Positions 4,301 through 57,700 of a stretch of DNA of 64,000 nucleotides are shown here, in pieces. The notes below the pieces were generated by a model, which saw only the letters and a list, made by a program, of their open reading frames with translations, was not told the DNA's origin and ran no database searches. The DNA is from a virus. The DNA lies in the UHGV virus genome UHGV-1558314. One strand, written 5' to 3'. The first letter of the stretch is position 1. Every line of letters begins with the position of its first letter. The position numbers were made by a program, and so were the translations under genes.

Positions 4301-7300
4301 TTAGAACAGAGCAATGATGTTGTCAACAAACATAAAGCACTTTTGCAGCAATTCAGCTGTCGGCGTCATCTCATATGCTTTGCCATCATACATAAATCGC
4401 ACAGTGACAATGGGTGACACTTCGTCTTTGAATGCAAGCACAGGAACATCTACACCTGCAGTCAATTGCACTTCAACATCCTTGTCAGCTGCTACATCTT
4501 TAGCAATCACTGCAATATCTTGACAACGACCAGCAGCTACTGCATATCTAACGTTTGTCAATGTAGCAGACATGTCAGCAAGAGCTTGCATGATTTGCTG
4601 TTGAGTAAATTGCTCAACCGACTTCTTTGCAGCCTTGACAGCTTCGATATCTTGCGTATTTGCAAGAATCAATGCTACCACTGCAGGGTCAGAAGTAGTC
4701 CACCAACGACCATCAATTGCAAGCCACAGTCGATTGCCATTGACGTCAATTGCATATGCATATTGAGTGTTTGGCGCCAATGTGACTTTTCGAGTGTTCT
4801 TTAAGAACTCTGCTGCATCAGGTGCTGCAACAATGTTCTTGACAAATGACGGCAGCATTTCAGCTTCAAATGTTTGTGTAGCTTCAAAGACACCGCCACG
4901 TGCATCGTCATCAATTCTGCCTGCAAAGCGTTTGCAGATTTGAATGATTGTAGCCATGCCTACTGTTGGAACGACTTGACGTTTCATTGCAGGCATTTGC
5001 AGAGGCATTGTATCTTGCGCAATGTACAATGATGTCGCATCAACAGTGTCAAGTACTCGTGCAATGTCTGCAGTATCAACAATTACAAACCAGTCGCCAT
5101 CATGGCAGACAATGAGTTGCTTGCTGTCATTTGCATATGTCAGCAATACTGCAATGTCATTTTTGATTGAGATTGCAGGAATCCATGCTTGTTGCAGAGG
5201 TAAGTCAAGATTTGGTGTGCCGCATGGATAAAGCGCAGATGGCTGCATAATTGAGCGGCAATCAAAACCTATTGAACTTACAAGCTGCAGAACTTCGCCA
5301 CGAATGCAAGCATTACTTTGATTCTGTGTCATGTCATATGCAAGCCAACTGCAAATTGCTTTGATTGATGACACTGGAAATGCTACGCCAATTGTGCTGT
5401 ATGCAATCTTGCCGTCTGCTGACAATGACTCATCAACTGCAATGCCAGCATCATTGAACAATGACATATCAATTGAACAATGGAATTCGCCACCAGGCAT
5501 TGGACCTGCAGCAATGCCATAGCCATGACCAAGTGACAGCCATTCTTTCATTGCATCTGAATTGTATGACGAGAACTTGTACAGCACATATGACTTATGC
5601 GGGTCACTAACTGACTTGCGAATCTCCATCTTGGCGCCTGCTTTCTTTGCAATTGCTTTAATGTTATCGGCATGCTTTTTTGCCTCAGACTTGTCAAATT
5701 TGCCTTCATCAAGTTGAGCAATCTTGCCAAGCGCATAAGCAGTCCATGCAATTAACAATTGATTCAGTGCACCAACTTCTGACCACGACTTTTCTGCAAA
5801 CCATGAGCCAAGACCAGATTTGTCAAGGGTTTCTTTGCGTTCAGCTTTTGTTGTGCTGTCCCACCACTTGCCAGTCGCAGGCAATACAATGTCTTTGATT
5901 TGCTCCTTACGAAGCTCATTGACACCAATTTTGCCCTCATGAACATGCGCATTTGCATGATATGCTCTAAGAGCAGCCAACGCAGCATCATATGAGTCAT
6001 AGTCTTGCGGCCAGAATTCCCCATTCTTGCCAATGATGCCCCATACACCCTTTGACTTTTCTTGGATGACAGAGTCTTTGTCACCGGCAGCTTCATTGAC
6101 AAATGCCGTGTTAAGATATGCAATGACATGCTGAAGCTCTTTGTCGTCTGCAGACTCATTGACGTTCTTAGCGTAATCACCAAGAATTGATTCAACTTTG
6201 CCACGCAAATTGCTTGGCATATCATCAAGGTCAAGATTGCCGTACTTCGTAACTTCTGGTTGAGACAATCCAAGCAATTTCAACACCTTATCGCGGTACT
6301 TATTTGCAAGCTTCTTCCAAATCCAGCGGAATGTTACAGCGCCAATCAAGAATTTGATGAGGCCCTCATCAAGTACATGTTGTTCACGCAAATATGCTGT
6401 AATGCATGAACGTTGACCATCAGTCAAGTCAACCCACATTTTATCAAGCAATATTGAATCTGGGTTGCTTGCAATGCCAGCGCCGCTGCGGTTGTACACA
6501 TTCATTCTGTCAATTGCTGGTGTTGCGTCATTGTCCCACCAAGCTTGTGCATATGAACATCCAGCAGGATTTGAGATTGCTTCATTAATGTACATGACAT
6601 TGAAGATTTCGCAAAGACGCTTGCGACATTCAGGTGACATAACTTGCCATTGTGTTGCAATTTTGTCTTCTGACCACTGCAACAGCATGTCTGCAAATTC
6701 TTTACCTGCGCATTGCTCAACTGCACCATGTTTCGAACGCCAATAATTGTCAGGCTCAATTTGTGCAATTGCATGAACAAATGAAGTCAGATTGTATGAC
6801 GCAGATTCGCAAATGCAATGCTGTTCAATGTAGCTACGAACAGCAAGTGCAGTGTCTTCCGGCAAGTTGCTATATGGTGACTCATAGATGTTTGCTTGCT
6901 GATTGAGCATATGTGGAGCAACTTCTGCAATGATTTGTTTGCGAACATTCAATGGCCATGCATTCCATGAAGATTCTACAGATTCATCAAGATGCATGCC
7001 AATTGCATCCATAACTGCATCAGCATCTTTGCCCGACAGTTCGTCAAACAATTTGTCTACTACTGCATAATCATATCGCAAATTTGGCTGAGCCTTTGCA
7101 AGAGCGTCCATCATTGCTTTGCGTTCTTGTTTTGACGCATTATTCCATGTGCCAGCATACAATTCTGCTGTCGCGCTTTCACAGACAATATCTGCAGCAG
7201 CATATGCTTGCTTCATAATGTCCATGAAGATTGACTTCATTTTTGGATGCATCACATGATACTTTTCATTGTAGATGTCAAGTACGCCATAAACATCTTT

Positions 7301-7507
7301 CAATGGTCGAATGCTTTCTGATGAGCCGAATGATGGCTTCAAAATTGAATTGCATACACGTTCAACGGTGCCACGCATAAACTTGACATCACTTCGCTTG
7401 TCACTGATAGACATAAATGCATCAATGACAGACTTGATGTTGTCATCTGCAGCTTCATTGACAAAGCCTACTGGTCGACCGCCAAACTTGTTTGTTTGTG
7501 TTGTCAT
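4301..7507 (-). CDS. Large hypothetical protein (1068 aa) with FVNE motifs; possibly a protease-processed virion protein
   Basis: Long ORF, ATG start MTTQTNKF; contains RPVGFVNEAADD near N-terminus and TAFVNEAAGD internally; no catalytic motif recognised. Confidence 0.8.
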   Translation of the reverse strand: MTTQTNKFGGRPVGFVNEAADDNIKSVIDAFMSISDKRSDVKFMRGTVERVCNSILKPSFGSSESIRPLKDVYGVLDIYNEKYHVMHPKMKSIFMDIMKQAYAAADIVCESATAELYAGTWNNASKQERKAMMDALAKAQPNLRYDYAVVDKLFDELSGKDADAVMDAIGMHLDESVESSWNAWPLNVRKQIIAEVAPHMLNQQANIYESPYSNLPEDTALAVRSYIEQHCICESASYNLTSFVHAIAQIEPDNYWRSKHGAVEQCAGKEFADMLLQWSEDKIATQWQVMSPECRKRLCEIFNVMYINEAISNPAGCSYAQAWWDNDATPAIDRMNVYNRSGAGIASNPDSILLDKMWVDLTDGQRSCITAYLREQHVLDEGLIKFLIGAVTFRWIWKKLANKYRDKVLKLLGLSQPEVTKYGNLDLDDMPSNLRGKVESILGDYAKNVNESADDKELQHVIAYLNTAFVNEAAGDKDSVIQEKSKGVWGIIGKNGEFWPQDYDSYDAALAALRAYHANAHVHEGKIGVNELRKEQIKDIVLPATGKWWDSTTKAERKETLDKSGLGSWFAEKSWSEVGALNQLLIAWTAYALGKIAQLDEGKFDKSEAKKHADNIKAIAKKAGAKMEIRKSVSDPHKSYVLYKFSSYNSDAMKEWLSLGHGYGIAAGPMPGGEFHCSIDMSLFNDAGIAVDESLSADGKIAYSTIGVAFPVSSIKAICSWLAYDMTQNQSNACIRGEVLQLVSSIGFDCRSIMQPSALYPCGTPNLDLPLQQAWIPAISIKNDIAVLLTYANDSKQLIVCHDGDWFVIVDTADIARVLDTVDATSLYIAQDTMPLQMPAMKRQVVPTVGMATIIQICKRFAGRIDDDARGGVFEATQTFEAEMLPSFVKNIVAAPDAAEFLKNTRKVTLAPNTQYAYAIDVNGNRLWLAIDGRWWTTSDPAVVALILANTQDIEAVKAAKKSVEQFTQQQIMQALADMSATLTNVRYAVAAGRCQDIAVIAKDVAADKDVEVQLTAGVDVPVLAFKDEVSPIVTVRFMYDGKAYEMTPTAELLQKCFMFVDNIIALF

Positions 7508-11780: not shown

Positions 11781-13322
11781 TTATCTACTTACAGAATCTC
11801 GCATTGAAATCATAACTTGCTCTTGAATTGACATAGGTATGATGTTGAAGTCTGACACTTCAGCAACGTCATCAACATCAAGTGCTCTTAATGTGTCTGT
11901 GTTACAGCAAGTCACTATGATTGACTTGCGAACATACTCATCAGCAACATTCCACAACAGCTGACAAATTGCTCGATTGTCAAGACAAATTTCATTGACT
12001 GTGCGGACAAGGCTGTACCATGCAGTCACATTATTGCGCTTCAGAGTTTCAAGCATATATCGTGCAAGCCCAAAACCTGCTACATATGACCCAGTCTGCT
12101 TATTGAATGACTCAATTGCGTATGCATCAAACAATGCTTCTGTCATCAAGGGCATTGCAGCGGTCATTCGGTAGTATCGATAGTCAACACATACAATCAA
12201 CCAGTTAACATATGAATTGACTGCGTATGCATGCGCTTTGAACCCAAGGTCATTCAAGATTTTGCAGATGGCATTGTAAGTCGATTCATCAGCATTGCCA
12301 AAGTTTGCAAGCAGCTTAACTTTAAGAATGTCTTCACCAATTGCATTTCTTGTAGCAGTGAATGATGGTATGCATGCAAAGCTTCTTTTGCAGATGTCTG
12401 TGATAAGTTGCTGTGCATCATTCACAAGCTGTCTTGCAGCCTCAGCACGCTTTTCAGACTGTGCTTGATATTTTGGCCGCAACTGTGATGAGCCAGTTGC
12501 AGCACCATATCGCATAGCAGCTTGCCAGTCCTTGAGATTATTTTGCAATTCACGAACATAGTCTGCAGCGACCATTGCAGATGGAGTTCTTTGCTGTTCG
12601 ATGAGTTTGTTGATGTTTGCAAGCACATCTGATGCAAACATATCTTTTGGTTTGACTTTCGCAATTTCAGCAAGCACTGCAGGTACACGAGCAATGCCAC
12701 GAGGCTCATTTGAAACTACTACTGCATAATCTACAAGTGCCTCACATACAAGCTGTTCATCGACAAAGTACTCAGGATTCTGCACAGCGTCTTCAACAAC
12801 TGCAATCAATGTTGCTATACGATTGCCGTCAGGCTTATTGCCAAACAGCTCAATGTACAACATATCTGCTTGTTGGTCTGTCATTGAACCTGCAATGTCA
12901 ATTGACTTTGCCAGCTTATTAAGCAGTTCAGCTTGCTTACTCGACAATCTGACTTTGTATGATGACTCTACAGCTTCTTTGACTGCTTTGAGTTTTCTAT
13001 CAATGTCAAGACTACTTTCATTGACATTCATACCAACAATGCCAGCAGCGTCAGTGTTAAATTGCTCAACAGTTTCTGCTGCAGTTATTGGCGATGACAC
13101 AATAGATTGTTTTGCATTTGCTGCAAGCTGATTGAGTCGAGTGACTGCTTCAGAATCTTGCGCAACTGCAAGATATCTTACGCACAGCTCATCAATCTGT
13201 GAAAGATAACTTTGGGTCATGTTTATCGAAAAATTGTTGTTTCTTGACGAATAGCTGTTGGATGCAATTTGCAGAAACACTTCGACATTTCTAAGTTCCG
13301 ATGATGACAACAATGTTTCCAT
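11781..13322 (-). CDS. Hypothetical protein (513 aa) with one VNE site; possible virion component
   Basis: ORF track; GMNVNESSLD motif. Confidence 0.7.
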   Translation of the reverse strand: METLLSSSELRNVEVFLQIASNSYSSRNNNFSINMTQSYLSQIDELCVRYLAVAQDSEAVTRLNQLAANAKQSIVSSPITAAETVEQFNTDAAGIVGMNVNESSLDIDRKLKAVKEAVESSYKVRLSSKQAELLNKLAKSIDIAGSMTDQQADMLYIELFGNKPDGNRIATLIAVVEDAVQNPEYFVDEQLVCEALVDYAVVVSNEPRGIARVPAVLAEIAKVKPKDMFASDVLANINKLIEQQRTPSAMVAADYVRELQNNLKDWQAAMRYGAATGSSQLRPKYQAQSEKRAEAARQLVNDAQQLITDICKRSFACIPSFTATRNAIGEDILKVKLLANFGNADESTYNAICKILNDLGFKAHAYAVNSYVNWLIVCVDYRYYRMTAAMPLMTEALFDAYAIESFNKQTGSYVAGFGLARYMLETLKRNNVTAWYSLVRTVNEICLDNRAICQLLWNVADEYVRKSIIVTCCNTDTLRALDVDDVAEVSDFNIIPMSIQEQVMISMRDSVSR

Positions 13323-21269: not shown

Positions 21270-23222
21270 CTACTCTGCTTTTGTTGCTTGCATCAGTTCA
21301 GCAAAGCTTACAGTGTAAGCATCTTCACCAACAGTCACATATGCTGCATCAACATTGGAGTCATTGCCTGTGTATGTAACCAAGGTGCCTGCAGGAATTT
21401 CTACACCGTCAATTGTTCGCATCGAATTGACAAGCTTATATGTCTTGTTGTCTTCGAAGTTCTCATTGACATATGCGGCAGCAATCATTGTTGAACGCTT
21501 ACGAGATGCAGACTCATTGACAAAGCTTGCGCCAACAAGTTCTGACAGCTTCTTCTTTGTTGCTGCAGAACACTTGTCATATGCAATGTCAATTGCAAGG
21601 TCTACATCGCCAAGTTCCTTTGCAATGAGTTCATCAATCTGAGACAGCTTCTTGTCATCTTTGACAGCGACAAAATTCATTGCAAACTTGCGAGCGTTGT
21701 CTGACAATGATTCATCAATGTTCCACTGTTTCATCAATGTCTGCTTCAGTACCTTGTCAAGTTCCGACCAGTCCTTATCTGCAAGAGTAGTTGCATCAAA
21801 GTCTTCATTGCTGAACTGCTTCAGCACTTTGACTTTGTCATCATGTGACAATGCTGACCACTTGTTTGCAGCGTCTTCAGCAGATTCAAGCAGAGGCTTG
21901 ATTGCATCTTTGAGTTCTTGCGGCCAAGTTTCAGGCGCTTTGAGCAGCATCTCAGATGAGTTGTACTTAAGCATGTCGGTCATGATTGCAAGCTTAACAT
22001 TGTTAGCTTTCTCCTCAGGTGACAGAGCTTTGAACTTTTCAGCCCAGTCTTCAGATTCAGTCACGATTGATACTGGCTTTGCAAAACCAGCGACAAAGAC
22101 AAGCTTATACATGATGTTCGTCATGAATGAACAAACTGCATCAATATCAGACTGAGTTGCTGCAGATTGAGCATCACGAATGTTAAGCAATGCTTGACGA
22201 AGAGACATAATGCCTACAACAGGGTCAGACCATGTCAATACAACTGAACTATCGATTGTGATGCCCTTGTCAAATCGCATATTTTCTGCAATGCGGTCAG
22301 CAAGTTCAGGCAGTTCAGTGTAGTACTGCTCAAGTGCTGCATGTGTAGCAGGAATAGAAACTTTTGCAGCATCAAATGGGTTATTGATGTGCATAACATG
22401 TGCAGTTTGAATTGACTGCATCAGCATCGACACTACTGCAGATTCTATTGCAACATCATCTGCAGCAGCTTCATCAAGATTTGCAATTTTTAGCAATGCC
22501 TTTTTGTCTGCATCTGACAATCGCAGCCAAATGTATTCCCATTGACTGTTTGCATCATAGCCACGGTCAGTAGCAAACTTGGTGAGTTCTGCAGATTTCT
22601 TTGCTGCGTCATCGTCATCAAGCCAATCCAAGAATGCTTTCAGTTTGTCGTCAAATGCTTCATTGACAAATGACGCCATCGCATTTTGCAACAAATATTG
22701 ATGGTCTCGTACTGGTGACTCAACAATTTCAAAGCCTTCAAGAGACTTTGGCGAGTCAGTTGCTGAACCAGCTTCAAGACACTTCTTTGATGCATTGTCA
22801 ATGACAAACCACATCTTTTGTGCTTTGAGTGCAATGTAAGTCTTGTCTTTTGATTGCTGAACAGTCATGTTGTCAAGAGCCAATGCACTGATTGGCAAAT
22901 TCTTGACTGCTGACTTGTCAAGTGCTTCATTGACTGCTACATTGTCATCACTCATTAACTGAGTATTTGCAGCAAATGTTGCAGAATCAATGCTAAGCTC
23001 TTTGCCATCGGGCATAGCGAACTTAACTGCATCTGCAACATCAAGCACTTGCACCATGGTGCCTGCTTCGACTTTGTCGTCACCAACAGCGAACTCAGTT
23101 ACAACCTGATATGCTTTGTTAGCTTCAACAGTCTCAACAGACTCCATAATGAACTTTGCTGTGCTGCAAGAGATTTTGTGCTTTTTCATGTTCATGTATG
23201 AATTTGAGTGTTTGTTGTTCAT
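21270..23222 (-). CDS. Acidic 650-aa protein with several xVNE sites; candidate scaffold/internal head protein
   Basis: ASFVNEAFDD, ASFVNESASR, AAYVNENFED, VAVNEALDK. Confidence 0.75.
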   Translation of the reverse strand: MNNKHSNSYMNMKKHKISCSTAKFIMESVETVEANKAYQVVTEFAVGDDKVEAGTMVQVLDVADAVKFAMPDGKELSIDSATFAANTQLMSDDNVAVNEALDKSAVKNLPISALALDNMTVQQSKDKTYIALKAQKMWFVIDNASKKCLEAGSATDSPKSLEGFEIVESPVRDHQYLLQNAMASFVNEAFDDKLKAFLDWLDDDDAAKKSAELTKFATDRGYDANSQWEYIWLRLSDADKKALLKIANLDEAAADDVAIESAVVSMLMQSIQTAHVMHINNPFDAAKVSIPATHAALEQYYTELPELADRIAENMRFDKGITIDSSVVLTWSDPVVGIMSLRQALLNIRDAQSAATQSDIDAVCSFMTNIMYKLVFVAGFAKPVSIVTESEDWAEKFKALSPEEKANNVKLAIMTDMLKYNSSEMLLKAPETWPQELKDAIKPLLESAEDAANKWSALSHDDKVKVLKQFSNEDFDATTLADKDWSELDKVLKQTLMKQWNIDESLSDNARKFAMNFVAVKDDKKLSQIDELIAKELGDVDLAIDIAYDKCSAATKKKLSELVGASFVNESASRKRSTMIAAAYVNENFEDNKTYKLVNSMRTIDGVEIPAGTLVTYTGNDSNVDAAYVTVGEDAYTVSFAELMQATKAE

Positions 23223-25700: not shown

Positions 25701-25737
25701 AAAAAAGAACCGCTTGCAATCTAATTGCAAGCGGTTC
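25701..25737 (-). terminator. Rho-independent terminator (14-bp stem + U tract on minus strand)
   Basis: aaaaaa gaaccgcttgcaat cta attgcaagcggttc. Confidence 0.7.
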
Positions 25738-25966: not shown

Positions 25967-27682
25967 TCAAATCCAGCCGTAGTCGCTGTGGATAGCGAAG
26001 GTGAGGTAAGCCAACTCGGGATACATACCCGTCTCCGCGAGAGCGTAATCCGACTCAATCAGCAACTTTGGCGCTGCTGTTCCTTCGGCTGTTAATTCCA
26101 CACTTGATGCAAGGTCATATGGCATGAATACACATCCCTGGTTGACATTCTCTACGTCAACACCGTCAGCAGTCTTGTTCGTACGAAGAACGAGAACAGT
26201 GTTGTCGTTCAGCGGCTGCTTAGGATTGCAATAGATTTTAATGCCAGCAAGGTCACCTGCGTAATACAGGTTTTTGTTGTCCTGTACCAGCGTATTGTCA
26301 AGAGCTGCAACAAAGTTTTTCTGAGCCTTAATTGCAACCAAGGCAATCGTATTGACCACAGCAGCATCACCAGCACCGAAACGCGACAGGTTGCCAATGA
26401 TTGCCGAAGCAGCCAGGATACGCGTTGCGATACGAGCCTGACGGGTAATCTGGTTCTCAGCCGAGCTGTTCGATTCAGCGTTCGGAACCATGCCGAATTC
26501 AGCCGTACGGTCTACACCCATCTTGTCGACAAATGCAGGAGCTTGGAATTCCGAGAATGCCTTGGCAGTCGAACCAGCGTAGCCAATGTACAAGTTCAGG
26601 TTGTAGCCCTGAGCAGCCAACAGCTGAGCATGTGTCGTAACACCAAGTGCACGCATGCGCTTCAGACCATTGTCATTGATTGACTGCGTGATTTCATTCT
26701 GCATTGCATTCTTGATGATTGCAACTGCATCCAAACCGCGAGCACGGAGGTCCTTAACCTGGCGACGAGTCAGAGCGCCCCAAGTCTGGTACGTCTTAAC
26801 TTCGATAGCCTTTGAGAAGGTGCGGAGCTCCAGCATGTTCGGGTTGCCAGCCTCAGCCTCAGAACGAGACATTGGGTTGCCGTCAAGGTCATCCATTGCA
26901 GCGAAGCCGTGGATGTGTTCGTCACCAGCCGAAACCAGGTCGAACATAACCTCAGTCATACCAGTCAGCAAGTCAGTTACAGCACCTGCAGCGTCAACCG
27001 AGTAGATTTTCGATGCAGCCATTGCAACATCAGCCAACGACTTGTCAGGAGCAACAGTCATTGCGCCACCTGCGCCTACAGTGTACACGCCCTCATTGCG
27101 AACTACGAGGTAGCCTGCAACACGCGATACCTGTACAAACGTTACTTTGGCAGCAAGCTCACCAGCAGCTGAACCGCCGATGTACAGAACTTGACCCTTC
27201 TTGAGGCCACGAACCATTGTCTGCGAAGCAACATTGTACAGTTCCTTCCACTTGATGAGGAAGTAGCGAGGACCCTTGGCAACATTCAGCTTGCCGCCAC
27301 CATACACGTAGTCTACATAGTCCAGCTGAACCAGCGGGCTGTAAACAGGAATGGTCGGGAGCAGGTCGAACAGAATCGTGTTGGCTGCGATGTTCATGTT
27401 CAGAGCCAGAACATTGGCAGCTACATCGATTGAACCACGCTTACGCGACGGGTCATGGAACTGTGCTTGCGTGCCTGGGTCAGCAGGGAAAGCGACCGGA
27501 CCTACGCCATTGAGATTCTGCGAATACGTCGACTCAAACGACTCGTTCATATACTGAACGTTCTGAGCGATTGATGCGAGCAGATACTTCTTAGCGGGCG
27601 AGAGCTTGGAGTCAAACGACTCATCAAGAACAGGGCCCCACTTTTTCAGCAATGCATCAATCTGTGTACGTTTTGCGTTCAT
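25967..27682 (-). CDS. Putative major capsid protein (571 aa) with N-terminal propeptide cleavage motif
   Basis: Markedly GC-richer codon usage than neighbours; N-terminal ...NVQYMNE/SFEST matches the recurrent xNE motif; late-type promoter upstream; family assignment not verified. Confidence 0.7.
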   Translation of the reverse strand: MNAKRTQIDALLKKWGPVLDESFDSKLSPAKKYLLASIAQNVQYMNESFESTYSQNLNGVGPVAFPADPGTQAQFHDPSRKRGSIDVAANVLALNMNIAANTILFDLLPTIPVYSPLVQLDYVDYVYGGGKLNVAKGPRYFLIKWKELYNVASQTMVRGLKKGQVLYIGGSAAGELAAKVTFVQVSRVAGYLVVRNEGVYTVGAGGAMTVAPDKSLADVAMAASKIYSVDAAGAVTDLLTGMTEVMFDLVSAGDEHIHGFAAMDDLDGNPMSRSEAEAGNPNMLELRTFSKAIEVKTYQTWGALTRRQVKDLRARGLDAVAIIKNAMQNEITQSINDNGLKRMRALGVTTHAQLLAAQGYNLNLYIGYAGSTAKAFSEFQAPAFVDKMGVDRTAEFGMVPNAESNSSAENQITRQARIATRILAASAIIGNLSRFGAGDAAVVNTIALVAIKAQKNFVAALDNTLVQDNKNLYYAGDLAGIKIYCNPKQPLNDNTVLVLRTNKTADGVDVENVNQGCVFMPYDLASSVELTAEGTAAPKLLIESDYALAETGMYPELAYLTFAIHSDYGWI

Positions 27683-29765: not shown

Positions 29766-29806
29766 GATTGTAATGTGTTATTAAATTGTTCTTGTTTTGT
29801 TATGCG

Positions 29807-30619: not shown

Positions 30620-33457
30620 CTACTCTGCAGATGCGCCTTGCAGTGACAATGTTGTACGATGTACACCAATTCGAATGCCTTGAGCATTGATAATTTCAGT
30701 GTCAAGTACAATGAATCCGCGAGCAATCGTTTCATCATCATTGTTGCTGCTATCACAGACATTCGTGTACGAAACTGCGCCACCGGCTGCAACGATGCCA
30801 TCCATGAAATTGTCTGCTTTAGTCTTAACCTGCAAACGAACATTTGCAGTGTTTCGCTTGTACTGGGCAGACTTCAAGTATGGCTCGATGTTGTCAGCGA
30901 CGTAGATGAGCAACTCGAGATTTTCGATGTAGCTGAATGCGCTGGTGTAAGCTACTTGTGCAGAACGAGATGTCAGCATTGTGATGACGCCTTGGTCTGA
31001 ACGAGCAAGCATATTCCAACCTGCAGGTTCAAGGTCATCCATATCAGACCCTTCACCTTGTGAGACAATCATGTCAATGTCGGTTACGCCAACACCAGAC
31101 AGTGGCCACTCATCACCAGCAACGACGTCAAAGACATGCTTGCCTGCTTCTATATGCTTTCTCATGAAGACATTCGACAAGATACCTGTTGCAGGAATCG
31201 TCATATCATCAATGCCATCATTGTAGCGAACATTGGCTACATATGTGATGAACGGTGCGCCATCAGTTTGACCTGCGAAGCTGAACAACTTGCTGTATGG
31301 TTTATCGGTGTTACCACCTGCAGCACAGTACTTAGACTCAATTGGGTCACCTGCATTGTCCTTGAAGTACGGGTCAGTTGAGCGGAACAAGTCATACTTG
31401 GTTGGCAGAGCAGAGAATGCGATTGCACGTTTTGAATCATTGCAAATCTTTGCAAACTCGTACTTTTGATTTGCTGCAATGTATGTCTTGAATGGGTCAA
31501 CTACGTAACGCCATTGACATTGATTGTGGTCCATCAAGCTACGATAAACGCCGCCTGAAATGAGAGCTTGCAGTACTTCTGTCTGACGTGCAGATGTGCC
31601 ATCAACAAATTGAGTTGCACGAAGAGCTACGCCATGCAGATATGCGCCCTTGAAGAACTTAACTTGGTCAACAAGCTTCGTCAATGACCAAACAGACGCC
31701 TGCGAGGCGTACTTCATCATTGAGCCATCTGCAAGTTCAAATTCGCCTTCAGCACCCGCAGCTTTGTATGCCAATGCACCAGTGAATTGATATTCAATCA
31801 ACACTTTGTTTTCTGCAAATGCATCGTAGACATTCTTCTTCTCAAGTGGCGACAAATCAGCTTCAGTGATTGTGATTGGCATGCCACCATACTTGAGCGG
31901 CTTATCCAACGGCAGACCATTAGAATCATATTCAACAAGGTCACCACCATATGAAATTGTCTCACCTGCAGCTCTTGCTTTACGAGCTTTCGTTGATGAA
32001 GTTTCTACATCTGCAGACTCTTCGCCGCCAATTGTGACTGTTGAGCCTTGCGGATAGATGAAGTTGCCCTTTGCATCCTGAGGGAATGCAACCTTTGCAC
32101 CTGATTCGTCAATGTACATTGGAATGCCGTCTTCCTTGCCAATGACAGGAACTGCGCGATATTCAGCTACAACTGCGCGACTTGTGCAGCGTACTGGTGA
32201 ACCATCAGCGCCAATGAAGATGTCGCCAAGTGAAATTGGCAACACTGGTGCAACAAATGAAGTCTTTGAAGCTTCACCTGGCTGCACAAATGGAACCATC
32301 ACATTAACAAACTCAGATGACACGAAGTCCTTGAGCTGTTCTTTTGTGATTGCGACATCTGTTGCTGTTGGCGTGCAGTCAATCTTTTCAGGATTGATGT
32401 CAGTTGACGGACGAGCCATGCCAAGATATTGATGTGTAGCATCATCAGCAAACAATGGACCCGCAGCTTCATCTACAGAAATGTAGTTCGAACCAAAGAT
32501 GTCCACTGCACGTTGGAAACGAGCGTCTTCAATGTCATTTGAATTGTAGAACTCGTCAACCTTGTCAGGGTCAATCTTACACATGATACCTGTCGTGTCT
32601 GACACTGCATTCACAGCAGTTTCCAATGACAGTTTGTTGCCATTGATATCAAGCAAGTCAGGAATCAATGAGCCAGATACACGACCCATGTAGCCAGATG
32701 CTGCAAGCTTTGACAGTGCCTCAGGACCATACATGCCATCAACTTGTGCACGGATGCCATCCTTTGTGAAGTACTTGCCATATACAGTCGAACCTGCAAG
32801 TGATTCATAGTTCGTCAGTTTTTCAGAGAAAAACCAAACATCAACCATATAGTCTGACACAAGGTCATTGCAGTTCACGCCGGGTACATACATTGATGGG
32901 AAGCGGTCTTGAACTGACTTGATGTCATAATCATAGCCAGTCAATGTTGTCGGCGTAATGAAGATTGTTGCAGACTTGTTTGTAAGTGTTGAGAAGTTGA
33001 GCAGCTGTACGGGGTCAGCGCCAACAGCATTGAGCAGATTCAATGGCTCAGCTTTCCAGAAGTTTGATGTATCATAGACATCCTTAAATGGAACGTCTAC
33101 AGGTGAGCCATCTTCTCCTGAGCTGTTTGCAGCAAAAGTCACTCGTGACAACACATCGCTATCATTGAATGAGCGCAAGTTCAACACAAGAATTGGGCTT
33201 GTTGCAAGCATTTGCTCTGCAATGAGACCAGCGAAACAGCCGGCACGCTCCAAACGCTTGTCACGTTGACCGAAAATTTCATGCAGCTGGTCTGCATCTT
33301 CAACAAGCACGGCGCGATTGACCGGACCGTTCTTCCACTGGCCTGGCAGCAATCGAAGTGTTTGAGCGGGCAGTGAGTCAAGGTGACTTGCGTCAATGAA
33401 CAGACGATATGTCCCGACTGACTTGAACCGTTCAAATAAAGAAGTGTTATTTGCCAT
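30620..33457 (-). CDS. Putative tail sheath protein (946 aa)
   Basis: N-terminal GQWKNGPVNRAVLVEDADQLHEIFG resembles sheath motif; ATG at 33455-33457 (MANNTSLF); late-type promoter; tentative. Confidence 0.65.
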   Translation of the reverse strand: MANNTSLFERFKSVGTYRLFIDASHLDSLPAQTLRLLPGQWKNGPVNRAVLVEDADQLHEIFGQRDKRLERAGCFAGLIAEQMLATSPILVLNLRSFNDSDVLSRVTFAANSSGEDGSPVDVPFKDVYDTSNFWKAEPLNLLNAVGADPVQLLNFSTLTNKSATIFITPTTLTGYDYDIKSVQDRFPSMYVPGVNCNDLVSDYMVDVWFFSEKLTNYESLAGSTVYGKYFTKDGIRAQVDGMYGPEALSKLAASGYMGRVSGSLIPDLLDINGNKLSLETAVNAVSDTTGIMCKIDPDKVDEFYNSNDIEDARFQRAVDIFGSNYISVDEAAGPLFADDATHQYLGMARPSTDINPEKIDCTPTATDVAITKEQLKDFVSSEFVNVMVPFVQPGEASKTSFVAPVLPISLGDIFIGADGSPVRCTSRAVVAEYRAVPVIGKEDGIPMYIDESGAKVAFPQDAKGNFIYPQGSTVTIGGEESADVETSSTKARKARAAGETISYGGDLVEYDSNGLPLDKPLKYGGMPITITEADLSPLEKKNVYDAFAENKVLIEYQFTGALAYKAAGAEGEFELADGSMMKYASQASVWSLTKLVDQVKFFKGAYLHGVALRATQFVDGTSARQTEVLQALISGGVYRSLMDHNQCQWRYVVDPFKTYIAANQKYEFAKICNDSKRAIAFSALPTKYDLFRSTDPYFKDNAGDPIESKYCAAGGNTDKPYSKLFSFAGQTDGAPFITYVANVRYNDGIDDMTIPATGILSNVFMRKHIEAGKHVFDVVAGDEWPLSGVGVTDIDMIVSQGEGSDMDDLEPAGWNMLARSDQGVITMLTSRSAQVAYTSAFSYIENLELLIYVADNIEPYLKSAQYKRNTANVRLQVKTKADNFMDGIVAAGGAVSYTNVCDSSNNDDETIARGFIVLDTEIINAQGIRIGVHRTTLSLQGASAE

Positions 33458-33560
33458 GTTCGTTATCGTATTTGTAAATTGTGAAATGTTGCTTTGTTTG
33501 ATTATAACTTGATATATGTATGTATATGATGACATCAAACATGTTGTTGACCAAAATCAA

Positions 33561-33611: not shown

Positions 33612-36600
33612 TTAGCCACGAATCAAGTCAACCAAGCGTTGCTGTTCAGGAGTCAATGACGACTTTCCACTGCCATCAACGTTTTCGTTAACGAAACCGA
33701 CTGGCTGCTTAGTCGAATATGACTTGATTGCAGCCCAGTTACGTGAACGATAGAATGCTGCGACATCTGACTCATTTACGAAAGTGCGAACTGCTGCCTG
33801 AGTAGCAATCAATGACTTCTGTTCAGGAGTCAAGCTTTCATAAATGTACTTGTATGCTGTTGGCATGTGCTTCAGATACAATGGCGTATGGTCAATTGGC
33901 TGCAGATTCTCATCCAAGACTGCCACACCTGCAGCATCATAGCGAGTTGCAAGCTGCTTTGTTTGACGACGCAATGCAGCAATTTCATGCTTGATGTTTG
34001 TCAAGCATTCATCTGTTGCTTGCGCGCCAAGATATGTGCGAAGCATATCAGACAGCATCTTCTGATTTGCGTCAGTCAAATCACCTGCGACTTCGATGCC
34101 AGTCAGCTGGTCATCCTTACTGATGACTACAGAAATTGTAGAGCCATCACGCTCAACTGTGCGGAAGTCAAAGTCATCATATGACTTATCCTTAAGAACA
34201 GCTTCACGAATATTGTCATCTACGCCTTCATTGACCATGCTCATGCATTCCTCAACATCTACGTCAAGTCCAAGCTCTTCTGCAGTTTCAGCAATCTTTT
34301 CTGCAAGTTGAGCTTTGTTTTCAACTTTGTCGAGGTCTGCTGCATCTGATACAGCATCGACAAGTTCATCTGCCTGTGCACGAGTAATCGTTGAAGCATC
34401 AACAAGGCCATCAATGATTTGCTCTACATCTGCAGGCGTCGGCTTATTGTCTTCTGTAGCTTCATTGATAAACTTAGCAGTCTTTGGCTTGTAGCTAAGC
34501 TTGCCCTCATTAACCATCTCATCCTGCAATTGTGCAGCGATGTATGCAATCAGCAATGACTTGTTGGCTTCAAGTTCATCGACTGCTTCAGCAGACTTTT
34601 GAGCTTTGATGAGTTCATCGTAAGCTGCTGCAACTTTGTCATCCATCGTAGACTTGTCAGGGTCAATGTTTTTGATGCATGTCTTGACAATGTCATCCTG
34701 ATAGAACTTGTCAATGATTGACTTGTCAGTGTCAGAGTACGTTGCATACAGCTTGTCAGCAACAATTGACTCATTGACAATCTTGCCAGGCTCAGATGCA
34801 GGAACAAGAGTCCACTTACCATCAACTTCTGCAACAATGCCTGATGTCGATTCACCATAAGTGACTGTCAGACGAGTACCAGCTTCATTGTTATCAATTG
34901 TGTTGACGACTGCTTCGAATTCATTGCCATCTGCATCATAGATTTTGATGTTGTCACCGACAGCAGCTTCATCTACTGGTGCTTCGAAGAACTCTTTGAC
35001 AAAGTTCTGAACATCAACGGGCAGACTGTCATATGGCTGTGATGCATAGTACTCTGAGTCAGCGTCAAGGTAGTTCTTTGACAGCAGCCAAGTTTTTCGA
35101 GCAGCAACATCTGCAGCATTCCAAGCATCGACTGACTCATCGCAGTCATCAACAAGTGCAAGATACTCAGGGTCTTTCTTGTCATCAAAACGAAGAGTAA
35201 ACTTTTGCTCGGGCTTGCCAGCAGGCCAAACTTCGACTTCAATTTTTGTAGTGCCTGCAACATTTTTGACTGCGCCTACAACAATCTTGTCGCCTTTGTT
35301 GATGCCATTAGACATGTCGTATGGTGCTTCAATAGATTCATCTGTCGACTGTGCTCGAATTGCAGCTGCAATAGCGTTACGAGATTCATTGTCAAACATC
35401 TCCCATGTAGCATTTGCAGCATCTTCTACGCCAATCTTGTCTTTGCCAATCTGCTCAATTAACTGATTGCGGTCAGCTACTGAAGCATTGTACCACCAGT
35501 CTGCTGCAGGGTCAGAAGCTTCATCAAGCGCTTTGACAGTTTCATATCGACCGTCATACAGCATGTACTTATCACCTTCTTTGATGGCTACAGACTCCTT
35601 GCCATTGTACTTGAATGACACTTTGTCTTCATTGAAGCCAGTCAATTCAGCTGTGATTTTGTCACCGTTCTTGTCATAAACTTCGACAGTTTGTGCTTCA
35701 TCAATGTTCAAGTGCTTCTTGAGTGCATCTACAAGTTCTTTGCCAAGTGCATCTTCATTGTCATGAGCATGTTGGAAGCAATCTTCATCTGACTTATCAG
35801 GCTGAACAGCTTTCAATGCTGTGGCACGATTGAGCATTGACATTGTGCCCCAGATTGATACGAAGCTTTTGCCCTCATTGTCTTGTGCTTTGGCTTCGTC
35901 AATTGCATCAATGTCTTTCTCAAGCATTGCATGATGAGCAATGTCGATGCCAGCCCATTTCGTCTTTGCATTATATGGCAAACCAATATGCTTCGACAAA
36001 ATTGACTGACGCTGGTCATCTGTGAATGAATCCCAAGCTTCGCCAAGTGTTGCATGCTTTGCTTCATCAGCAGCAAATTCAGCTTCAATCTTGAGTTTGT
36101 GGTCCTTGTCAATCAGTTGCCACTTGGCATTTGGACGATAAAACTCAGACAATGACAGCTTGTCAAGAATGACTTTGCGTTCGTCATCTGACAATTCGTC
36201 CCACTTGTTGTCAGCAGATTCATCGATGTTGACGAGTTCTTTCTCAATGAGATTCTTGTCAAGCATTGCATCAATGATTGGCTGCTGGGCTTCTGCTGGA
36301 ATGTCTTTGAACGACTTAATTGCAATGACAGCGTCTTTGTCATCAACTTTAGCAGCTTCAACAATTTCTGTCTTCACTTCATCAGTCAAAGCGCCCCAAG
36401 CAGCATCGAGATAATCAAAGTTGAGAGCTTCATCACATTCAACAATGCCATACTGCTTTGCAATGTCATTGTGCTTGTCAAGATTGCTGTCGAGTTCAGC
36501 TTCAATTGCTGCTTTGATGTCATCAATTGACTTATCTTCAACTTCAAACTCAAGAGCTTTTGCAAATTCAGTCAATGCTGCATCATCAAGCTTGCTAATG

Positions 36601-37562
36601 TCATAAGGCTTAGCATCTTCATTTGTGAAGTCAATGCCAAGCAAAGACATTGCTTGTTTTTTGTTTTCTTCTGAGAGTGCATCGAATGCAGTTGCAAGAC
36701 CGACATCGGTATAGTCACACCCAACTTCGTCAAGCAATGCTTCGACTTTCTGGATGTTTTCTACACCAACTTCATTAGCATCAGCATTGTTGTATGCCTC
36801 AATAAAACGTGATTGGTTTGTCATGGTAGTGAAATCTTCTATTGATTCGTTTATGAGTTGCTGTTTGAGTGCATCCAATGATGCTGAGCCAATCAATGCA
36901 TCAGGGAATAGCTTCTGCAACATGCCTGTACGTGCAAGCTCAATCAATTGGAGCATCAATGAGTTTGGCGAGTCTTCGTCATCTACAGATTCACAAATGA
37001 GAGTGTCTTTTGATTCATTAACTGAACCGACAAGATTGAACTCTGCTTCAGGAAATGACGGCTCGCATACTAAATCGTATGTAATCAACTTTAGTAGAGT
37101 CGTTGCACCTGTAGTAGGATTAACTATACCAAGAGCTCGACTTGATACAAACAATGGTGAGCCTGCAGCCACAACTGCCCATGCAATACGACCTGCTGGC
37201 GTATCAAGAATAGTAATCCAGCCTTCAAATCGTTGCTTATCAGGATTCCATTCAATACTGTCAATGCGGTGTGATACATTCCCATACTTCACAGTACGTC
37301 GCTTAACATGCTCAAGCTCGCCAAATAGACGCTTAGCTTTGATTGCTGATTGCAATGTTTGTACTTGCGCAAAATAATTTTCGAAATTGTATGTTCGACC
37401 ATTACGATTACGCTCGCCAATAGTTGCATATGTACCGAACAATCTACCAAGCGCGCCACTTGGCACATGTTCATCTACAGCTTCAGCAACAAATTGACAA
37501 TCCTGGCGGCTTTCTATAATAAGCTGCGCAGGCTTGCCTTTGTATGTTATTGGTTTTGCCAT
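33612..37562 (-). CDS. Prohead protease (T4 gp21 / S77-like) fused to a long acidic scaffold/internal-protein-like region (1316 aa)
   Basis: N-terminal NGRTYNFENY ... LFGELEHVKRR ... SHRIDSIEW ... ILDTPAGRIAWAVVAAGSPLFVSSRALG ... YDLVCEPSFP; downstream GSVNE, LINESIED, MSMVNEG, KFINEA, KIVNES, TFVNES, GFVNEN. Confidence 0.8.
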   Translation of the reverse strand: MAKPITYKGKPAQLIIESRQDCQFVAEAVDEHVPSGALGRLFGTYATIGERNRNGRTYNFENYFAQVQTLQSAIKAKRLFGELEHVKRRTVKYGNVSHRIDSIEWNPDKQRFEGWITILDTPAGRIAWAVVAAGSPLFVSSRALGIVNPTTGATTLLKLITYDLVCEPSFPEAEFNLVGSVNESKDTLICESVDDEDSPNSLMLQLIELARTGMLQKLFPDALIGSASLDALKQQLINESIEDFTTMTNQSRFIEAYNNADANEVGVENIQKVEALLDEVGCDYTDVGLATAFDALSEENKKQAMSLLGIDFTNEDAKPYDISKLDDAALTEFAKALEFEVEDKSIDDIKAAIEAELDSNLDKHNDIAKQYGIVECDEALNFDYLDAAWGALTDEVKTEIVEAAKVDDKDAVIAIKSFKDIPAEAQQPIIDAMLDKNLIEKELVNIDESADNKWDELSDDERKVILDKLSLSEFYRPNAKWQLIDKDHKLKIEAEFAADEAKHATLGEAWDSFTDDQRQSILSKHIGLPYNAKTKWAGIDIAHHAMLEKDIDAIDEAKAQDNEGKSFVSIWGTMSMLNRATALKAVQPDKSDEDCFQHAHDNEDALGKELVDALKKHLNIDEAQTVEVYDKNGDKITAELTGFNEDKVSFKYNGKESVAIKEGDKYMLYDGRYETVKALDEASDPAADWWYNASVADRNQLIEQIGKDKIGVEDAANATWEMFDNESRNAIAAAIRAQSTDESIEAPYDMSNGINKGDKIVVGAVKNVAGTTKIEVEVWPAGKPEQKFTLRFDDKKDPEYLALVDDCDESVDAWNAADVAARKTWLLSKNYLDADSEYYASQPYDSLPVDVQNFVKEFFEAPVDEAAVGDNIKIYDADGNEFEAVVNTIDNNEAGTRLTVTYGESTSGIVAEVDGKWTLVPASEPGKIVNESIVADKLYATYSDTDKSIIDKFYQDDIVKTCIKNIDPDKSTMDDKVAAAYDELIKAQKSAEAVDELEANKSLLIAYIAAQLQDEMVNEGKLSYKPKTAKFINEATEDNKPTPADVEQIIDGLVDASTITRAQADELVDAVSDAADLDKVENKAQLAEKIAETAEELGLDVDVEECMSMVNEGVDDNIREAVLKDKSYDDFDFRTVERDGSTISVVISKDDQLTGIEVAGDLTDANQKMLSDMLRTYLGAQATDECLTNIKHEIAALRRQTKQLATRYDAAGVAVLDENLQPIDHTPLYLKHMPTAYKYIYESLTPEQKSLIATQAAVRTFVNESDVAAFYRSRNWAAIKSYSTKQPVGFVNENVDGSGKSSLTPEQQRLVDLIRG

Positions 37563-37707: not shown

Positions 37708-38376
37708 ATGTCAACAAACAATCATGGCAAGCTCAGATTACTTGAGCTCAAAGAAGCACAGCCATATGATACACTCAAAATTGGCATCGACGTATCAGTA
37801 GATGCTACTGGCATGTGCATGATATTTGGCAAGACTGTCGCATTGTTCAAATTTACACCACATTTGCCGCCAGAAGATGACAGTTCAGATGATGTGAACT
37901 TTGTGCAGTTCAACAAAATCTATCTGCAAACATCATCTTCTGCAAGAGAACGCTCAAAAATGCATACTCGACATACGCTTGCAAATAAGATTGTTGATGC
38001 TATTGACATGTTCATGCAGGAAATCTGGCCGAACAGTCCAGCAAACATTCAAATTGTCACAGAAGGGTCTGCATATGGCTATGCTGCGCATAACTCTAAC
38101 AGCTTAGTTGAACTTGCTGAATTTAGAAGCGTGATTTTAGAAAGAGTCTATCATCGTTGGCCTCTTGGTACACATCTAAGTCTTGATGTCATTGCGCCAA
38201 AATCATTGAAGAAACACGCGACTGGTGATGGCAAAGCAGACAAACTAAAGATGATTGAAGCTGCAATCGCTAAGTTGACACGCATTCATTGGGCAGGCAA
38301 AATTGACGATGAATGTGACGCATTGCATCTTTGTATGTATGAGCCATTAAGCAATCCTGAACCACGACTTTGGTGA
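37708..38376 (+). CDS. RuvC-like Holliday junction resolvase
   Basis: LKIGIDVSVDATGM (first Asp), VTEGSAYGY (Glu), DDECDALHLCMYE (Asp/His). Confidence 0.8.
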   Translation: MSTNNHGKLRLLELKEAQPYDTLKIGIDVSVDATGMCMIFGKTVALFKFTPHLPPEDDSSDDVNFVQFNKIYLQTSSSARERSKMHTRHTLANKIVDAIDMFMQEIWPNSPANIQIVTEGSAYGYAAHNSNSLVELAEFRSVILERVYHRWPLGTHLSLDVIAPKSLKKHATGDGKADKLKMIEAAIAKLTRIHWAGKIDDECDALHLCMYEPLSNPEPRLW

Positions 38377-48437: not shown

Positions 48438-49727
48438 TTATTCTTTTGGCAGAAGTTCAGCAATGCGTGACTGCAATTGCTCTTTCTGCTTCAAATAGCT
48501 GTCAAGAATTTGCTGATGAGCTGCATAGCCCTCTGATGTTGGGTCCATACTCTGCATTGTGACTTGAACTGCAGCAATGTCTGATTCGACATTGTTGAGC
48601 ACTGTCTGATATGCGTCGACTTGTGCAGATGCACGAATTGCAGCTTTCATTGCAGTGTCATAATGTTCGCGCCACATTGACTTGATGCATTCGATTTCTG
48701 GTGTGCTTACAGAAATTGACTGCAATGCTGCAATGAGTGCAACAATGCCGCCGTATACTGTAATGACGCCAGACTGAGTGTCAAGCATGTTGAAGTGATT
48801 GCCATCAACTGCGTATACAATGATAGGCGCAGATTGCAGCTTGACTGAATTGTCGAGAACTGCAAGCTTTGTGAACTGCTGCGCTACTGTAATGACTGCA
48901 TTGCAAATTGCCTCTGCAGTCTCAAATTCGCCTGCAACTTGCATGCTAACTTGATTGAGTTGCATATAAGTCTTGACTTTCTCAGCGAATTCAAGTGCAG
49001 TCATAACTTGCGAATCAAGCTCAACTGCATCTTGGCCAACAATGCGAACATGGCCGACAATTGTGTCAGCAAAGAATGCTTCAGTCTTTGGACAATACTG
49101 AACAAGAGACATCGCATCCATCAATGCAACAGATTCTGCAGATGGCTCAGATGCTGTAGCATACAGCAAATTACCATCAGATACAGTGAACCACTTGCCA
49201 ACTACAGGCAGACCCATGATGTCGCCTTCAATAATTGCAAGCACATGCTGGCAATCACCTGTAGCAATGATGTGCTCAGGATTTGCTGCATAGTAGATGT
49301 CTTTTGCCTGCTTAATGAGCGACTTCACCTCAGGGTACATGTCATAATTGTCAAGCACGCCATCAACTGCAATTGCTCGAATGATTGGCTCATCAGTTGA
49401 TGCAACATCTACTGCATCTTCGATTGCTGACGCAGCCCTTTGCATATTTGCAGAGCCATCACTCATCAAATCTTCCATGACAAGTGACGCCTTGAAACCA
49501 AAGCCATCTGCGCCAATTGCTGCTTTCTGTGATTTTGCAAATGCGCGTACAGCAGCATCTTTGCTATTTGCAGCGCTTTCCAAAATCATTGCAGCTTTTC
49601 GAAGAGTCAGACCAGACTTTTTGATTTGTGCAAGTGACTCATTGACAAAGTTTGCACCGCCAAAAGTCAATGCTTTGATGCCTTTGATACCTTGAACAAA
49701 TGCATCAACGTTTACAGTATGTTTCAT
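48438..49727 (-). CDS. Hypothetical protein (429 aa) with N-terminal FVNE site; candidate processed virion protein
   Basis: GGANFVNESLAQ about 27 aa from N-terminus. Confidence 0.75.
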   Translation of the reverse strand: MKHTVNVDAFVQGIKGIKALTFGGANFVNESLAQIKKSGLTLRKAAMILESAANSKDAAVRAFAKSQKAAIGADGFGFKASLVMEDLMSDGSANMQRAASAIEDAVDVASTDEPIIRAIAVDGVLDNYDMYPEVKSLIKQAKDIYYAANPEHIIATGDCQHVLAIIEGDIMGLPVVGKWFTVSDGNLLYATASEPSAESVALMDAMSLVQYCPKTEAFFADTIVGHVRIVGQDAVELDSQVMTALEFAEKVKTYMQLNQVSMQVAGEFETAEAICNAVITVAQQFTKLAVLDNSVKLQSAPIIVYAVDGNHFNMLDTQSGVITVYGGIVALIAALQSISVSTPEIECIKSMWREHYDTAMKAAIRASAQVDAYQTVLNNVESDIAAVQVTMQSMDPTSEGYAAHQQILDSYLKQKEQLQSRIAELLPKE

Positions 49728-57689: not shown

Positions 57690-57700
57690 ATTATTATCTT

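Follow-up and report, generated by a model that had tools for sequence, protein, structure and literature searches.

The window analysed here is a 64,000-nucleotide stretch of the virus genome UHGV-1558314, and on its minus strand, at 33612..37562, lies an open reading frame (ORF) that starts with ATG, runs for 3,951 nt with no internal stop and encodes 1316 amino acids (aa) plus stop. Here, we describe the product of this gene, referred to below as the fusion, which joins an N-terminal domain resembling the T4 protease gp21 to an extension of 1,133 residues (184-1316) carrying a short recurrent motif, and which we read as a probable self-processing prohead polyprotein. An earlier sequence-only reading of the locus had reported a protease-extension fusion with x-V-N-E sites, an observation that is confirmed, and it had rightly called the C-terminal remainder acidic (D+E 20.6% versus K+R 10.5%; isoelectric point, pI, 4.3). 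An identical protein, P0001, is encoded on a 175.6-kb metagenome contig.

The N-terminal domain can be assigned with high confidence to the T4 gp21-type proteases (MEROPS S77) on the strength of profile, pairwise and structural comparisons. The head maturation protease profile phrog_207 matches residues 10-243 (E 7e-34), and the Pfam family Peptidase_S77 (PF03420), for which a precomputed match to P0001 also exists, matches residues 52-173 (E 3.9e-6) with 26.9 bits where the gathering score is 27.0, so that the S77 profile check proposed in the sequence-only reading was clear with the one profile and stopped 0.1 bit under the cut-off with the other. By tblastn, 600 phage records were matched, in every case by way of the protein's N-terminal quarter (residues ~6-290 in the matches listed), and many of these are annotated as gp21 (E down to 1e-26). 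BLASTP against T4 gp21 itself (from NC_000866) gave 25% identity over 150 aa (E 5e-5), pairing GELEH with GELNH and VSSRALG with VSSRGLG and thus putting His85 and Ser140 at the same positions in both proteins; H85, S140 and S141 are invariant in a 36-sequence alignment. The signature strings quoted in the earlier reading are all present in the ORF (NGRTY at 54, GELEH at 81, SHRIDS at 97, SSRALG at 140, DLVCEPS at 163 and GSVNE at 179-183). Near the N-terminus, QLIIE17↓S (the arrow marks a known or predicted scissile bond) resembles QLLIE9↓T of T4 gp21, an enzyme reported to be activated by removing nine of its own N-terminal residues (PMC9958956), and LIxES is the majority consensus at the end of this putative pro-peptide in alignment A1.

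Structure prediction, which the earlier reading had also proposed, points the same way. The AlphaFold (AF2) model of residues 1-260 has a confident core at residues 32-178 (predicted local distance difference test, pLDDT, 80-90), and the only significant matches that Foldseek found for it in the Protein Data Bank (PDB) were three chains of 5JBL, the structure of T4 gp21 (E 8e-7, probability 1.0; template modelling score on the target 0.67-0.70, root-mean-square deviation 2.1-3.2 Å), with herpesvirus proteases lower in the list as weak fold matches. Since phmmer with residues 1-260 found no match among PDB sequences and the family profile reached 5JBL at no better than E 0.07, the link to T4 gp21 stands on the fold search and the pairwise BLAST. 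The proposal of a gp21-like N-terminal protease has thus held up by profile match, by catalytic residues in register and by predicted fold.

The second defining property of the fusion is a set of eight [V/I]-N-E tripeptides, with Glu at 183, 239, 931, 1019, 1034, 1112, 1264 and 1293, where the sequence-only reading had counted seven and overlooked QLINE239; the further sites that it had noticed are real and strongly enriched. P4 is hydrophobic at seven of the eight sites, P1' is S, G, A or N at all of them, and half of the 16 NE dipeptides in the fusion are preceded by V or I. The strict motif [VIM]NE[SAGN] is observed eight times against 0.22 expected, a count that none of 20,000 residue shuffles reached (maximum 3). 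Site conservation was judged in an alignment of 11 diverse homologues, with overall identity down to ~35%, and four sites (E183, E1112, E1264 and E1293) are kept in at least ten of them. The site that directly follows the protease domain, GSVNE183, had been put forward as a place of autocleavage and remains a plausible one, being situated in a predicted disordered linker, retained in every one of the 11 homologues (N182, E183 and S184 are invariant in A1) and aligned by BLASTP with I-T-E↓S near the C-terminus of T4 gp21. Cleavage of the fusion at [V/I/M]-N-E can be predicted with good confidence from these patterns. T4 gp21 cuts after L/I-X-E, and the phiKZ and SPN3US proteases after S/A-X-E and A-X-E, with all three cleaving themselves (PMC9026906, PMC5694885); judged by sequence, the fusion motif obeys the same Glu-cutting rule as T4 with P2 fixed as Asn, a narrower version of L/I-X-E.

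The same motif marks other proteins of the window. Outside the fusion gene, the strict form occurs 11 times against 2.1 expected, and all 11 occurrences fall in five non-enzyme proteins; none is found in the recognisable enzymes of the window, and ribonucleotide reductase, the DNA polymerase pieces, the portal and the sheath are without any. In the Gp23-type major capsid protein it takes the form QYMNE47↓S, with QY[IM]NE↓[SGA] present in 45/45 capsid homologues (73-99% identity, at least 530 aa) and F[IV]NE↓ or [HY]-E↓S at the same position in more distant Gp23 homologues. T4 gp23 sheds a 65-residue N-terminal piece at the corresponding place (PMC9958956), and the capsid-protein site is homologous to this known cut. 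A protein of 1068 aa with four strict sites is likely to be a second cleavable multi-module head protein. Another, of 650 aa, which matches DUF5856 at 32.3 bits, below the Pfam cut-off of 34.6, and also phrog_858, is a candidate for a major core or internal head protein, and its orthologue at the related locus L005 is larger (880 aa) and carries seven strict sites. In the genes that occupy the place of the 429-aa protein in L004 and L005, the N-terminal FVNE is retained, at residues 28 and 21 respectively. As a separate observation, the endolysin-like protein at 13335-13943 (minus strand; phrog_894) has W-V-N-E21 near its N-terminus, followed by Met at P1', and so fails the strict motif.

The extension is predicted to be a chain of small domains. 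The model of residues 240-1316 (1,077 residues) has the appearance of beads on a string (mean pLDDT 62, predicted template modelling score 0.26), with a confident helical region at about residues 249-444, three small beta-barrels at about 625-669, 760-793 and 885-919, and, downstream of the array of variable modules, helical domains at 934-1107, an alpha/beta domain at 1131-1207 and a final helix at 1305-1315. The two-helix modules of the array carry W-x2-L-[ST]-D-x2-[RK]. Nine weaker junctions of the form x-D-E↓[S/A] (E378, 448, 500, 556, 622, 681, 742, 809 and 865), together with V-N-E931, delimit modules of 52-70 residues, and cleavage at the x-D-E junctions is proposed with low to moderate confidence. 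Within the model, 14 of 16 sites and junctions lie in segments of pLDDT <50, which make up 29% of the chain (P = 2e-6).

These module boundaries are also the places where relatives differ. In relatives that are elsewhere 87-98% identical, whole modules account for the differences in length. With a single exception, each insertion or deletion of at least eight residues opens just behind ...D-E or ...N-E and closes with ...[N/D/S]-E, one example being the exact loss of the beta-barrel module 621-679. When the 70 proteins of the family were cut at the junctions and clustered, 63 module families resulted; the N-terminal protease part and the C-terminal order 4-.-2-3-5-6-. are constant across the 70, and the middle is variable. 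The variants P0019-P0023 have a module that the fusion of the window lacks, and residues 599-697 of the 1068-aa protein match it with 57% identity (E 1e-22), from which we conclude that modules move between the two multi-site proteins. At the level of DNA, the junctions share only their codons (GAT/AAT GAA KCN), with no extended homology to explain cassette exchange. Self-BLAST of the fusion gave no off-diagonal alignment, and windowed Smith-Waterman comparison found one pair above the shuffled range (426-496 versus 496-566, score 67 versus a null maximum of 59); the internal repeats are too diverged for simple methods. We make no claim that the tryptophan-containing 'W' module type is common to other window proteins, as a five-module hidden Markov model gave the 1068-aa protein a marginal E of 0.014 and did not find the 650-aa protein; what firmly connects the fusion and the 1068-aa protein is the 57%-identical module. 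Searches of the extension by phmmer against the PDB returned only noise, Foldseek of the 1,077-residue model against the PDB and BFVD returned nothing at E < 0.01, and the small beta modules resemble Sm/SH3-like barrels at no better than E ~1.

The C-terminal block is a conserved part of the extension. Almost no variation is seen in the 14 residues with which it ends, LTPEQQxLVDxIRG, where T, E, Q, Q, L, D, I and G are the same in every sequence of A3, the alignment that covers residues 932-1316. In a search of 1.84 billion representative proteins, the A3 profile, which over its last ~80 positions reads ...MPxAYKxIxESLTxEQKxLxxxQAxxRTFVNExDVAxFYRxRNW..., finds strong matches only within the fusion family. 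Its C-terminal anchor recurs at the ends of S77 fusions of 476-703 aa and in protease-less proteins, in that A3 positions ~245-370 match the C-termini of the S77 fusions P0085, P0086, P0088, P0090, P0091 and P0094 and also the protease-less P0083, P0089, P0092 and P0095 (E 2.6e-6 to 4.7e-4), and phages pT24 and MA9V-2 have a related C-terminal end. A targeting or docking element is the most likely role for this block by analogy with scaffold proteins, whose C-termini bind the shell. For SPN3US, the authors likewise inferred that the prohead protease is guided into the prohead by the C-terminal part that it later removes from itself (PMC5694885). No scaffold family of Pfam or PHROGs matches the fusion, and hhalign of A3 against T4 gp22 gave a probability of 0.6%, that is, no relation. 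The description 'scaffold-like' in the sequence-only reading is therefore apt for gene position, acidity and domain architecture and does not extend to homology with gp22; 'scaffold' here denotes position and character, not family membership. T4 gp22 (L008:8118-8927) does contain DLTESQKEKVSALVEG and NFVTE↓AVED, which resemble ESLTPEQKSLIATQ / SLTPEQQRLVDLIRG and FVNE↓S of window residues ~1240-1316, a likeness that is perhaps coincidence and for which the profile comparison gives no support of homology.

Table 1. Features of the fusion and of other motif-bearing proteins in the window; fractions are homologues, among 11 diverse ones, that retain the site.
Feature	Residues	Coordinates	Strand	Remarks
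Putative N-terminal pro-peptide	1-17	37512..37562	-	ends L-I-I-E↓S; cf. QLLIE↓T of T4 gp21
S77 (T4 gp21-type) serine protease domain	18-183	37014..37511	-	His85, Ser140; predicted mature mass 18.5 kDa
V181-N-E183, predicted release (autocleavage) site		37014..37022	-	11/11; pLDDT <50 linker 179-198; directly follows protease domain
I237-N-E239 site		36846..36854	-	close clade only
Helical region of extension	240-378	36429..36845	-	pLDDT 80-90; module family 20 in most close-clade proteins
Variable module array	379-931	34770..36428	-	ten modules of 52-70 aa: five two-helix, three small beta-barrels, others
V929-N-E931 site		34770..34778	-	7/11; linker
C-terminal block, candidate prohead-targeting or capsid-binding region	932-1316	33615..34769	-	same module order in 70/70 family proteins
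V1017-N-E1019 site		34506..34514	-	8/11; linker
I1032-N-E1034 site		34461..34469	-	8/11; linker
V1110-N-E1112 site		34227..34235	-	11/11; V, N, E invariant in A3; linker
V1262-N-E1264 site in C-terminal anchor motif RTFVNE↓SDVAAFYRSRNW		33771..33779	-	11/11
V1291-N-E1293, last site		33684..33692	-	10/11; 23 residues before C-terminus; linker
C-terminal peptide	1294-1316	33615..33683	-	ends in conserved helix LTPEQQxLVDxIRG; predicted helix 1305-1315
Y-M-N-E47↓S in Gp23-type major capsid protein (gene 25967-27682)		27542..27553	-	predicted end of 47-residue propeptide
1068-aa protein		4301..7507	-	no family match; four strict [V/I]-N-E↓[S/A] sites: E18, 309, 451, 472
650-aa DUF5856 protein		21270..23222	-	four strict sites: E99, 188, 570, 587
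429-aa protein adjoining head-fibre gene		48438..49727	-	N-F-V-N-E30↓S near N-terminus
513-aa protein		11781..13322	-	one strict site, N-V-N-E102↓S; weakest candidate substrate

Within the head module, the fusion gene has the place of gp21, with the portal gene on one side and the major capsid gene on the other. Upstream lie genes for a T4-type portal (39112-40908) and a gp2-like DNA end protector (42180-42926), with a RuvC-like gene on the opposite strand (37708-38376, plus) between the portal and the fusion. Downstream follow, in order, a 972-aa tail sheath (30620-33538, minus), a membrane-like (EP)n protein, homing-endonuclease-like genes and the capsid gene, so that the immediate neighbour is the sheath gene and not that of the capsid protein. 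At L004 and L005, gp2 is followed by the portal gene, the fusion and, after one small ORF in L004 only, Gp23; no separate gp22-like gene was called there, and this arrangement agrees with the T4 order 20-67-68-21-22-23 (NC_000866) with 21 and 22 merged. As the RuvC-like gene and the tail sheath are absent from those positions in L004 and L005, we regard the head module of the window as interrupted. The place of an acidic, multi-site partner between protease and capsid genes is taken by the extension itself, with its eight strong and 9-10 weaker sites and its position in L004 and L005, and no separate scaffold candidate was recognised in the window. The 191-aa ORF at 29190-29765 and the 177-aa ORF that in L004 separates the fusion from the capsid gene are unrelated (E 15), and neither matched any scaffold family.

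Signals for separate expression of parts of the fusion were sought in the same region. The T4 late promoter TATAAATA is not enriched (two matches against 1.7 expected, none in the fusion gene), and a local upstream promoter-like motif likewise has no occurrence inside the fusion gene. The genes of the window are not preceded by Shine-Dalgarno-like sequences, the regions upstream of minus-strand genes being A/T-rich, and because the genome lacks such signals, internal starts in the fusion cannot be judged from sequence. The same lack, together with the nearest cultured relatives being phages of Chryseobacterium and Tenacibaculum, hints at a host among the Bacteroidota.

Other features of the surroundings may be recorded here. 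A 249-aa protein (ORF 29807-30556, minus) is hydrophobic in its N-terminal half, and its C-terminal half consists of a long, perfect (Glu-Pro)n dipeptide repeat (29775-30086), which the plus strand reads as (Ser-Gly)n. Homing-endonuclease-like ORFs stand on both sides of the capsid gene (23475-25702 and 27771-29060, minus strand); 27771-29060 and 24599-25702 have in common a C-terminal domain, INPTV[TS]HN...GYRCITxFDWD, and 23475-24581 matches HNH / homing-endonuclease PHROGs. The DNA polymerase is apparently split, as the minus-strand ORFs 51370-52662 and 56184-57725 match phrog_262 positions 505-842 and 111-490 and lie ~3.5 kb apart, an interval that includes a homing-endonuclease-like gene at 54976-56175.

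Long relatives of the fusion exist in metagenomes. Among 5.8 billion proteins searched, ~70 clusters with lengths of 1316-1661 aa were recovered, in all of which the ORF is continuous. Megablast of the fusion gene against 50,697 phage genomes gave no match, and by tblastn against phage genomes only the first ~290 residues find matches. The best match among deposited phage genomes is the MA9V-2 protein WNN12458, with 32% identity over residues 25-290. The size of the fusion, which had been called unusual, is less so than was thought, given that ~500-aa S77 fusions make up a whole PHROG family, that the MA9V-2 homologue has 1207 aa and that the ~70 metagenome clusters are as long or longer. The ~500-aa fusions (PHROG 207) are already known, with the annotation 'prohead core scaffold and protease' in Tenacibaculum phages. 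A literature search found no study of the long S77 fusions, and the publications on Chryseobacterium phage MA9V-2 do not discuss its 1207-aa protein. New here are the 1316-1661-aa size class, the sharply defined motif with its predicted substrate set, and the cassette-like array bounded by cleavage-type junctions.

Comparison with T4 brings out both likeness and difference. The protease has a fold homologous to that of gp21 (MEROPS S77, PF03420, 5JBL) with His85 and Ser140 in the same numbering, and motifs correspond at the N-terminus (QLLIE↓T in T4, QLIIE↓S here) and after the domain (ITE↓S and VNE↓S); in both systems cuts are made, or here predicted, after Glu with an aliphatic P3, the capsid propeptide ends in the motif, and the protease gene follows the portal gene, lies (in relatives) directly before gp23 and has an acidic multi-site partner. 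T4, however, has one gene for the protease (212 aa) and another for the scaffold (269 aa), where here there is one ORF of 1316 aa; the extension is four times longer than gp22, not detectably homologous to it and built with folded beta-barrel and alpha/beta modules, and P2, any residue in T4, is fixed as Asn (or Asp).

The phrog_207 fusions of ~470-700 aa, such as the 'prohead core scaffold' BAV39266 of Tenacibaculum phage pT24 (527 aa) and the 'Prohead core scaffolding protein and protease' of PTm1, share with the window fusion an S77 domain at the N-terminus, an extension that is acidic and the C-terminal anchor (...ESLTxxQKxxIxxQAxxRxFxxExDVxxFWxSRN...), after which a last Glu site follows near the end; they differ in being two to three times shorter and in a middle made of short 'W-V-x-x-E-F-A-P' helical repeats, not diverse folded modules. 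Similar in size is the 'prohead core protein serine protease' of MA9V-2, whose gene lies directly upstream of the capsid gene; it carries ~20 [I/L/F/A]-N-E-[S/A/G] motifs, and the MA9V-2 capsid protein has FINE↓A and FLNE↓S, although the two long proteins can be aligned only in the protease and the extreme C-terminus and their middle modules differ.

Fusions of protease and scaffold are classical in herpesviruses (UL26 and the assemblin-scaffold precursor UL80 of human cytomegalovirus), lambda gpC and P2 gpO, where both occupy one chain that is cut behind the protease, to release it, and again at a maturation site ~25 residues short of the C-terminus, an arrangement that E183 and E1293 of the fusion would parallel. 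These proteins belong to other protease families, save for a distant assemblin-like fold, and their systems also make the scaffold separately from a nested in-frame gene. The diverged gp21 homologues phiKZ gp175 and SPN3US gp245, which cut after Glu (S/A-X-E and A-X-E), remove their own C-terminal region, inferred to direct them to the prohead (PMC5694885, PMC9026906), and differ from the fusion in their length of ~260 aa, their short C-terminal tail and their many substrates from separate genes.

We consider it likely, at a probability of roughly 0.7, that the fusion gene encodes a self-processing prohead polyprotein, in which a protease and a scaffold or core extension are made as one chain and cleaved at the motif. 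Briefly, the protease would be tethered to an acidic chain of 1,133 residues, composed of ~15 small folded domains on flexible linkers, and the conserved C-terminal block would dock the protein inside the assembling prohead, in or bound to the scaffolding core. After closure of the shell, the protease would cut following the Glu of hydrophobic-[V/I/M]-N-E↓[S/A/G/N], and probably at the weaker x-D-E↓[S/A] junctions too. An 18.5-kDa protease (residues 18-183) would thereby be released, the C-terminal 23-residue peptide would be detached by the cut at the last site, and the extension would be split into 9 to ~19 pieces, small enough to exit the head or be rearranged in it, while the 47-residue propeptide would be removed from the Gp23-type capsid protein and several other candidate substrates would be trimmed. 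The protease homology and fold, the enrichment, conservation, linker location and non-enzyme restriction of the sites, and the coming and going of whole modules in the middle are computed results. We attach moderate confidence to the scaffold or core role of the extension. The interpretation given in the sequence-only reading is supported in every part that can be tested computationally.

Several points weigh against the proposed polyprotein. The Pfam S77 score is 0.1 bit under the curated cut-off, and neither T4 gp22 nor any solved or predicted structure could be matched to the extension. Between the fusion and the capsid gene, the window has the tail sheath and several genes of mobile appearance. 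A single chain fixes the ratio of protease to scaffold at 1:1, unlike T4 with its ~55-100 gp21 to ~580 gp22, and a nested, separately expressed scaffold is unsupported by the promoter-motif scans of the fusion gene. The x-D-E junctions may simply be linkers, and the acidic folded modules could be cargo instead of scaffold.

This last possibility is the main rival to the self-processing scaffold. It holds that the extension is mainly a cargo polyprotein, whose middle modules are internal head proteins that are released, kept with the DNA and injected, like IPI*, IPII and IPIII of T4, the protease and C-terminal block serving only to deliver them into the prohead. We judge it unlikely, although much about the modules is in keeping with it: their content varies, always by whole modules at junctions, among relatives 87-98% identical elsewhere (63 families in 70 proteins), one of them is common to the second multi-site protein of the window, and they are predicted to be independently folded domains of 6-8 kDa. 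In T4, too, the internal proteins are variable and enter the core by means of a cleavable targeting sequence, and IPI* counters host restriction (PMC9958956, PMC9026906). Yet the variability is equally explicable by relaxed constraint on a space-filling core, strongly acidic modules (pI ~4.3) fit an expelled scaffold better than proteins packed with DNA, no module matches a known anti-defence or enzymatic family in Pfam, PHROGs, the PDB or BFVD, and no other scaffold candidate was found in the window. More specifically, the middle may be a hypervariable cassette array of internal head proteins of 6-12 kDa, bounded by the recognition sequence of the protease, released in the capsid and delivered with the DNA, with modules exchanged between phages and with the 4301-7507 protein much as T4 internal proteins engage in an arms race with host defences; we regard this as rather improbable.

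Far less probable again is that the [V/I]-N-E and x-D-E motifs are never cut, and that the product remains in one piece as a large internal or tethering head protein built of repeats, in which the motifs serve as conserved linkers or helix caps. Their location at domain boundaries, where conserved capping residues are common, and the frequency of the x-D-E form in other window proteins would suit such a role, against which stand the presence of the same motif at the homologous end of the Gp23 propeptide, cut in T4, its occurrence near the N-termini (residues 18 and 30) of unrelated window proteins without repeat architecture, its place directly after the protease domain in alignment with I-T-E↓S of T4 gp21, and its absence from the recognisable enzymes of the window. 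The idea that the long ORF arose artefactually, when a misassembly or a frameshift fused a protease gene to a downstream gene, would be conceivable for a metagenome-type sequence with no isolate but is almost certainly wrong, as identical or near-identical full-length ORFs occur on many independent contigs and samples (JGI, ENA, Logan), the same architecture is found in the isolated phages MA9V-2 (1207 aa) and pT24 (527 aa), and 3,951 nt are free of internal stops.

If the sites are real, the self-processing polyprotein would come with an unusually well-defined prohead-protease motif, hydrophobic-[V/I/M]-N-E↓small, and the processed head proteome of an uncultured group of ~180-kb T4-like phages would become readable from sequence, with six proteins marked in the window. 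As the cultured phage MA9V-2 has a 1207-aa version, the predictions are open to ordinary mass spectrometry of virions. The family shows a head-assembly polyprotein growing to 1,300-1,660 residues by whole domains added at cleavage-site junctions, domains that come and go freely between near-identical phages, and it bears on how large capsids build and then clear their cores, and on whether phage particles carry small proteins, in variable sets, into the host.

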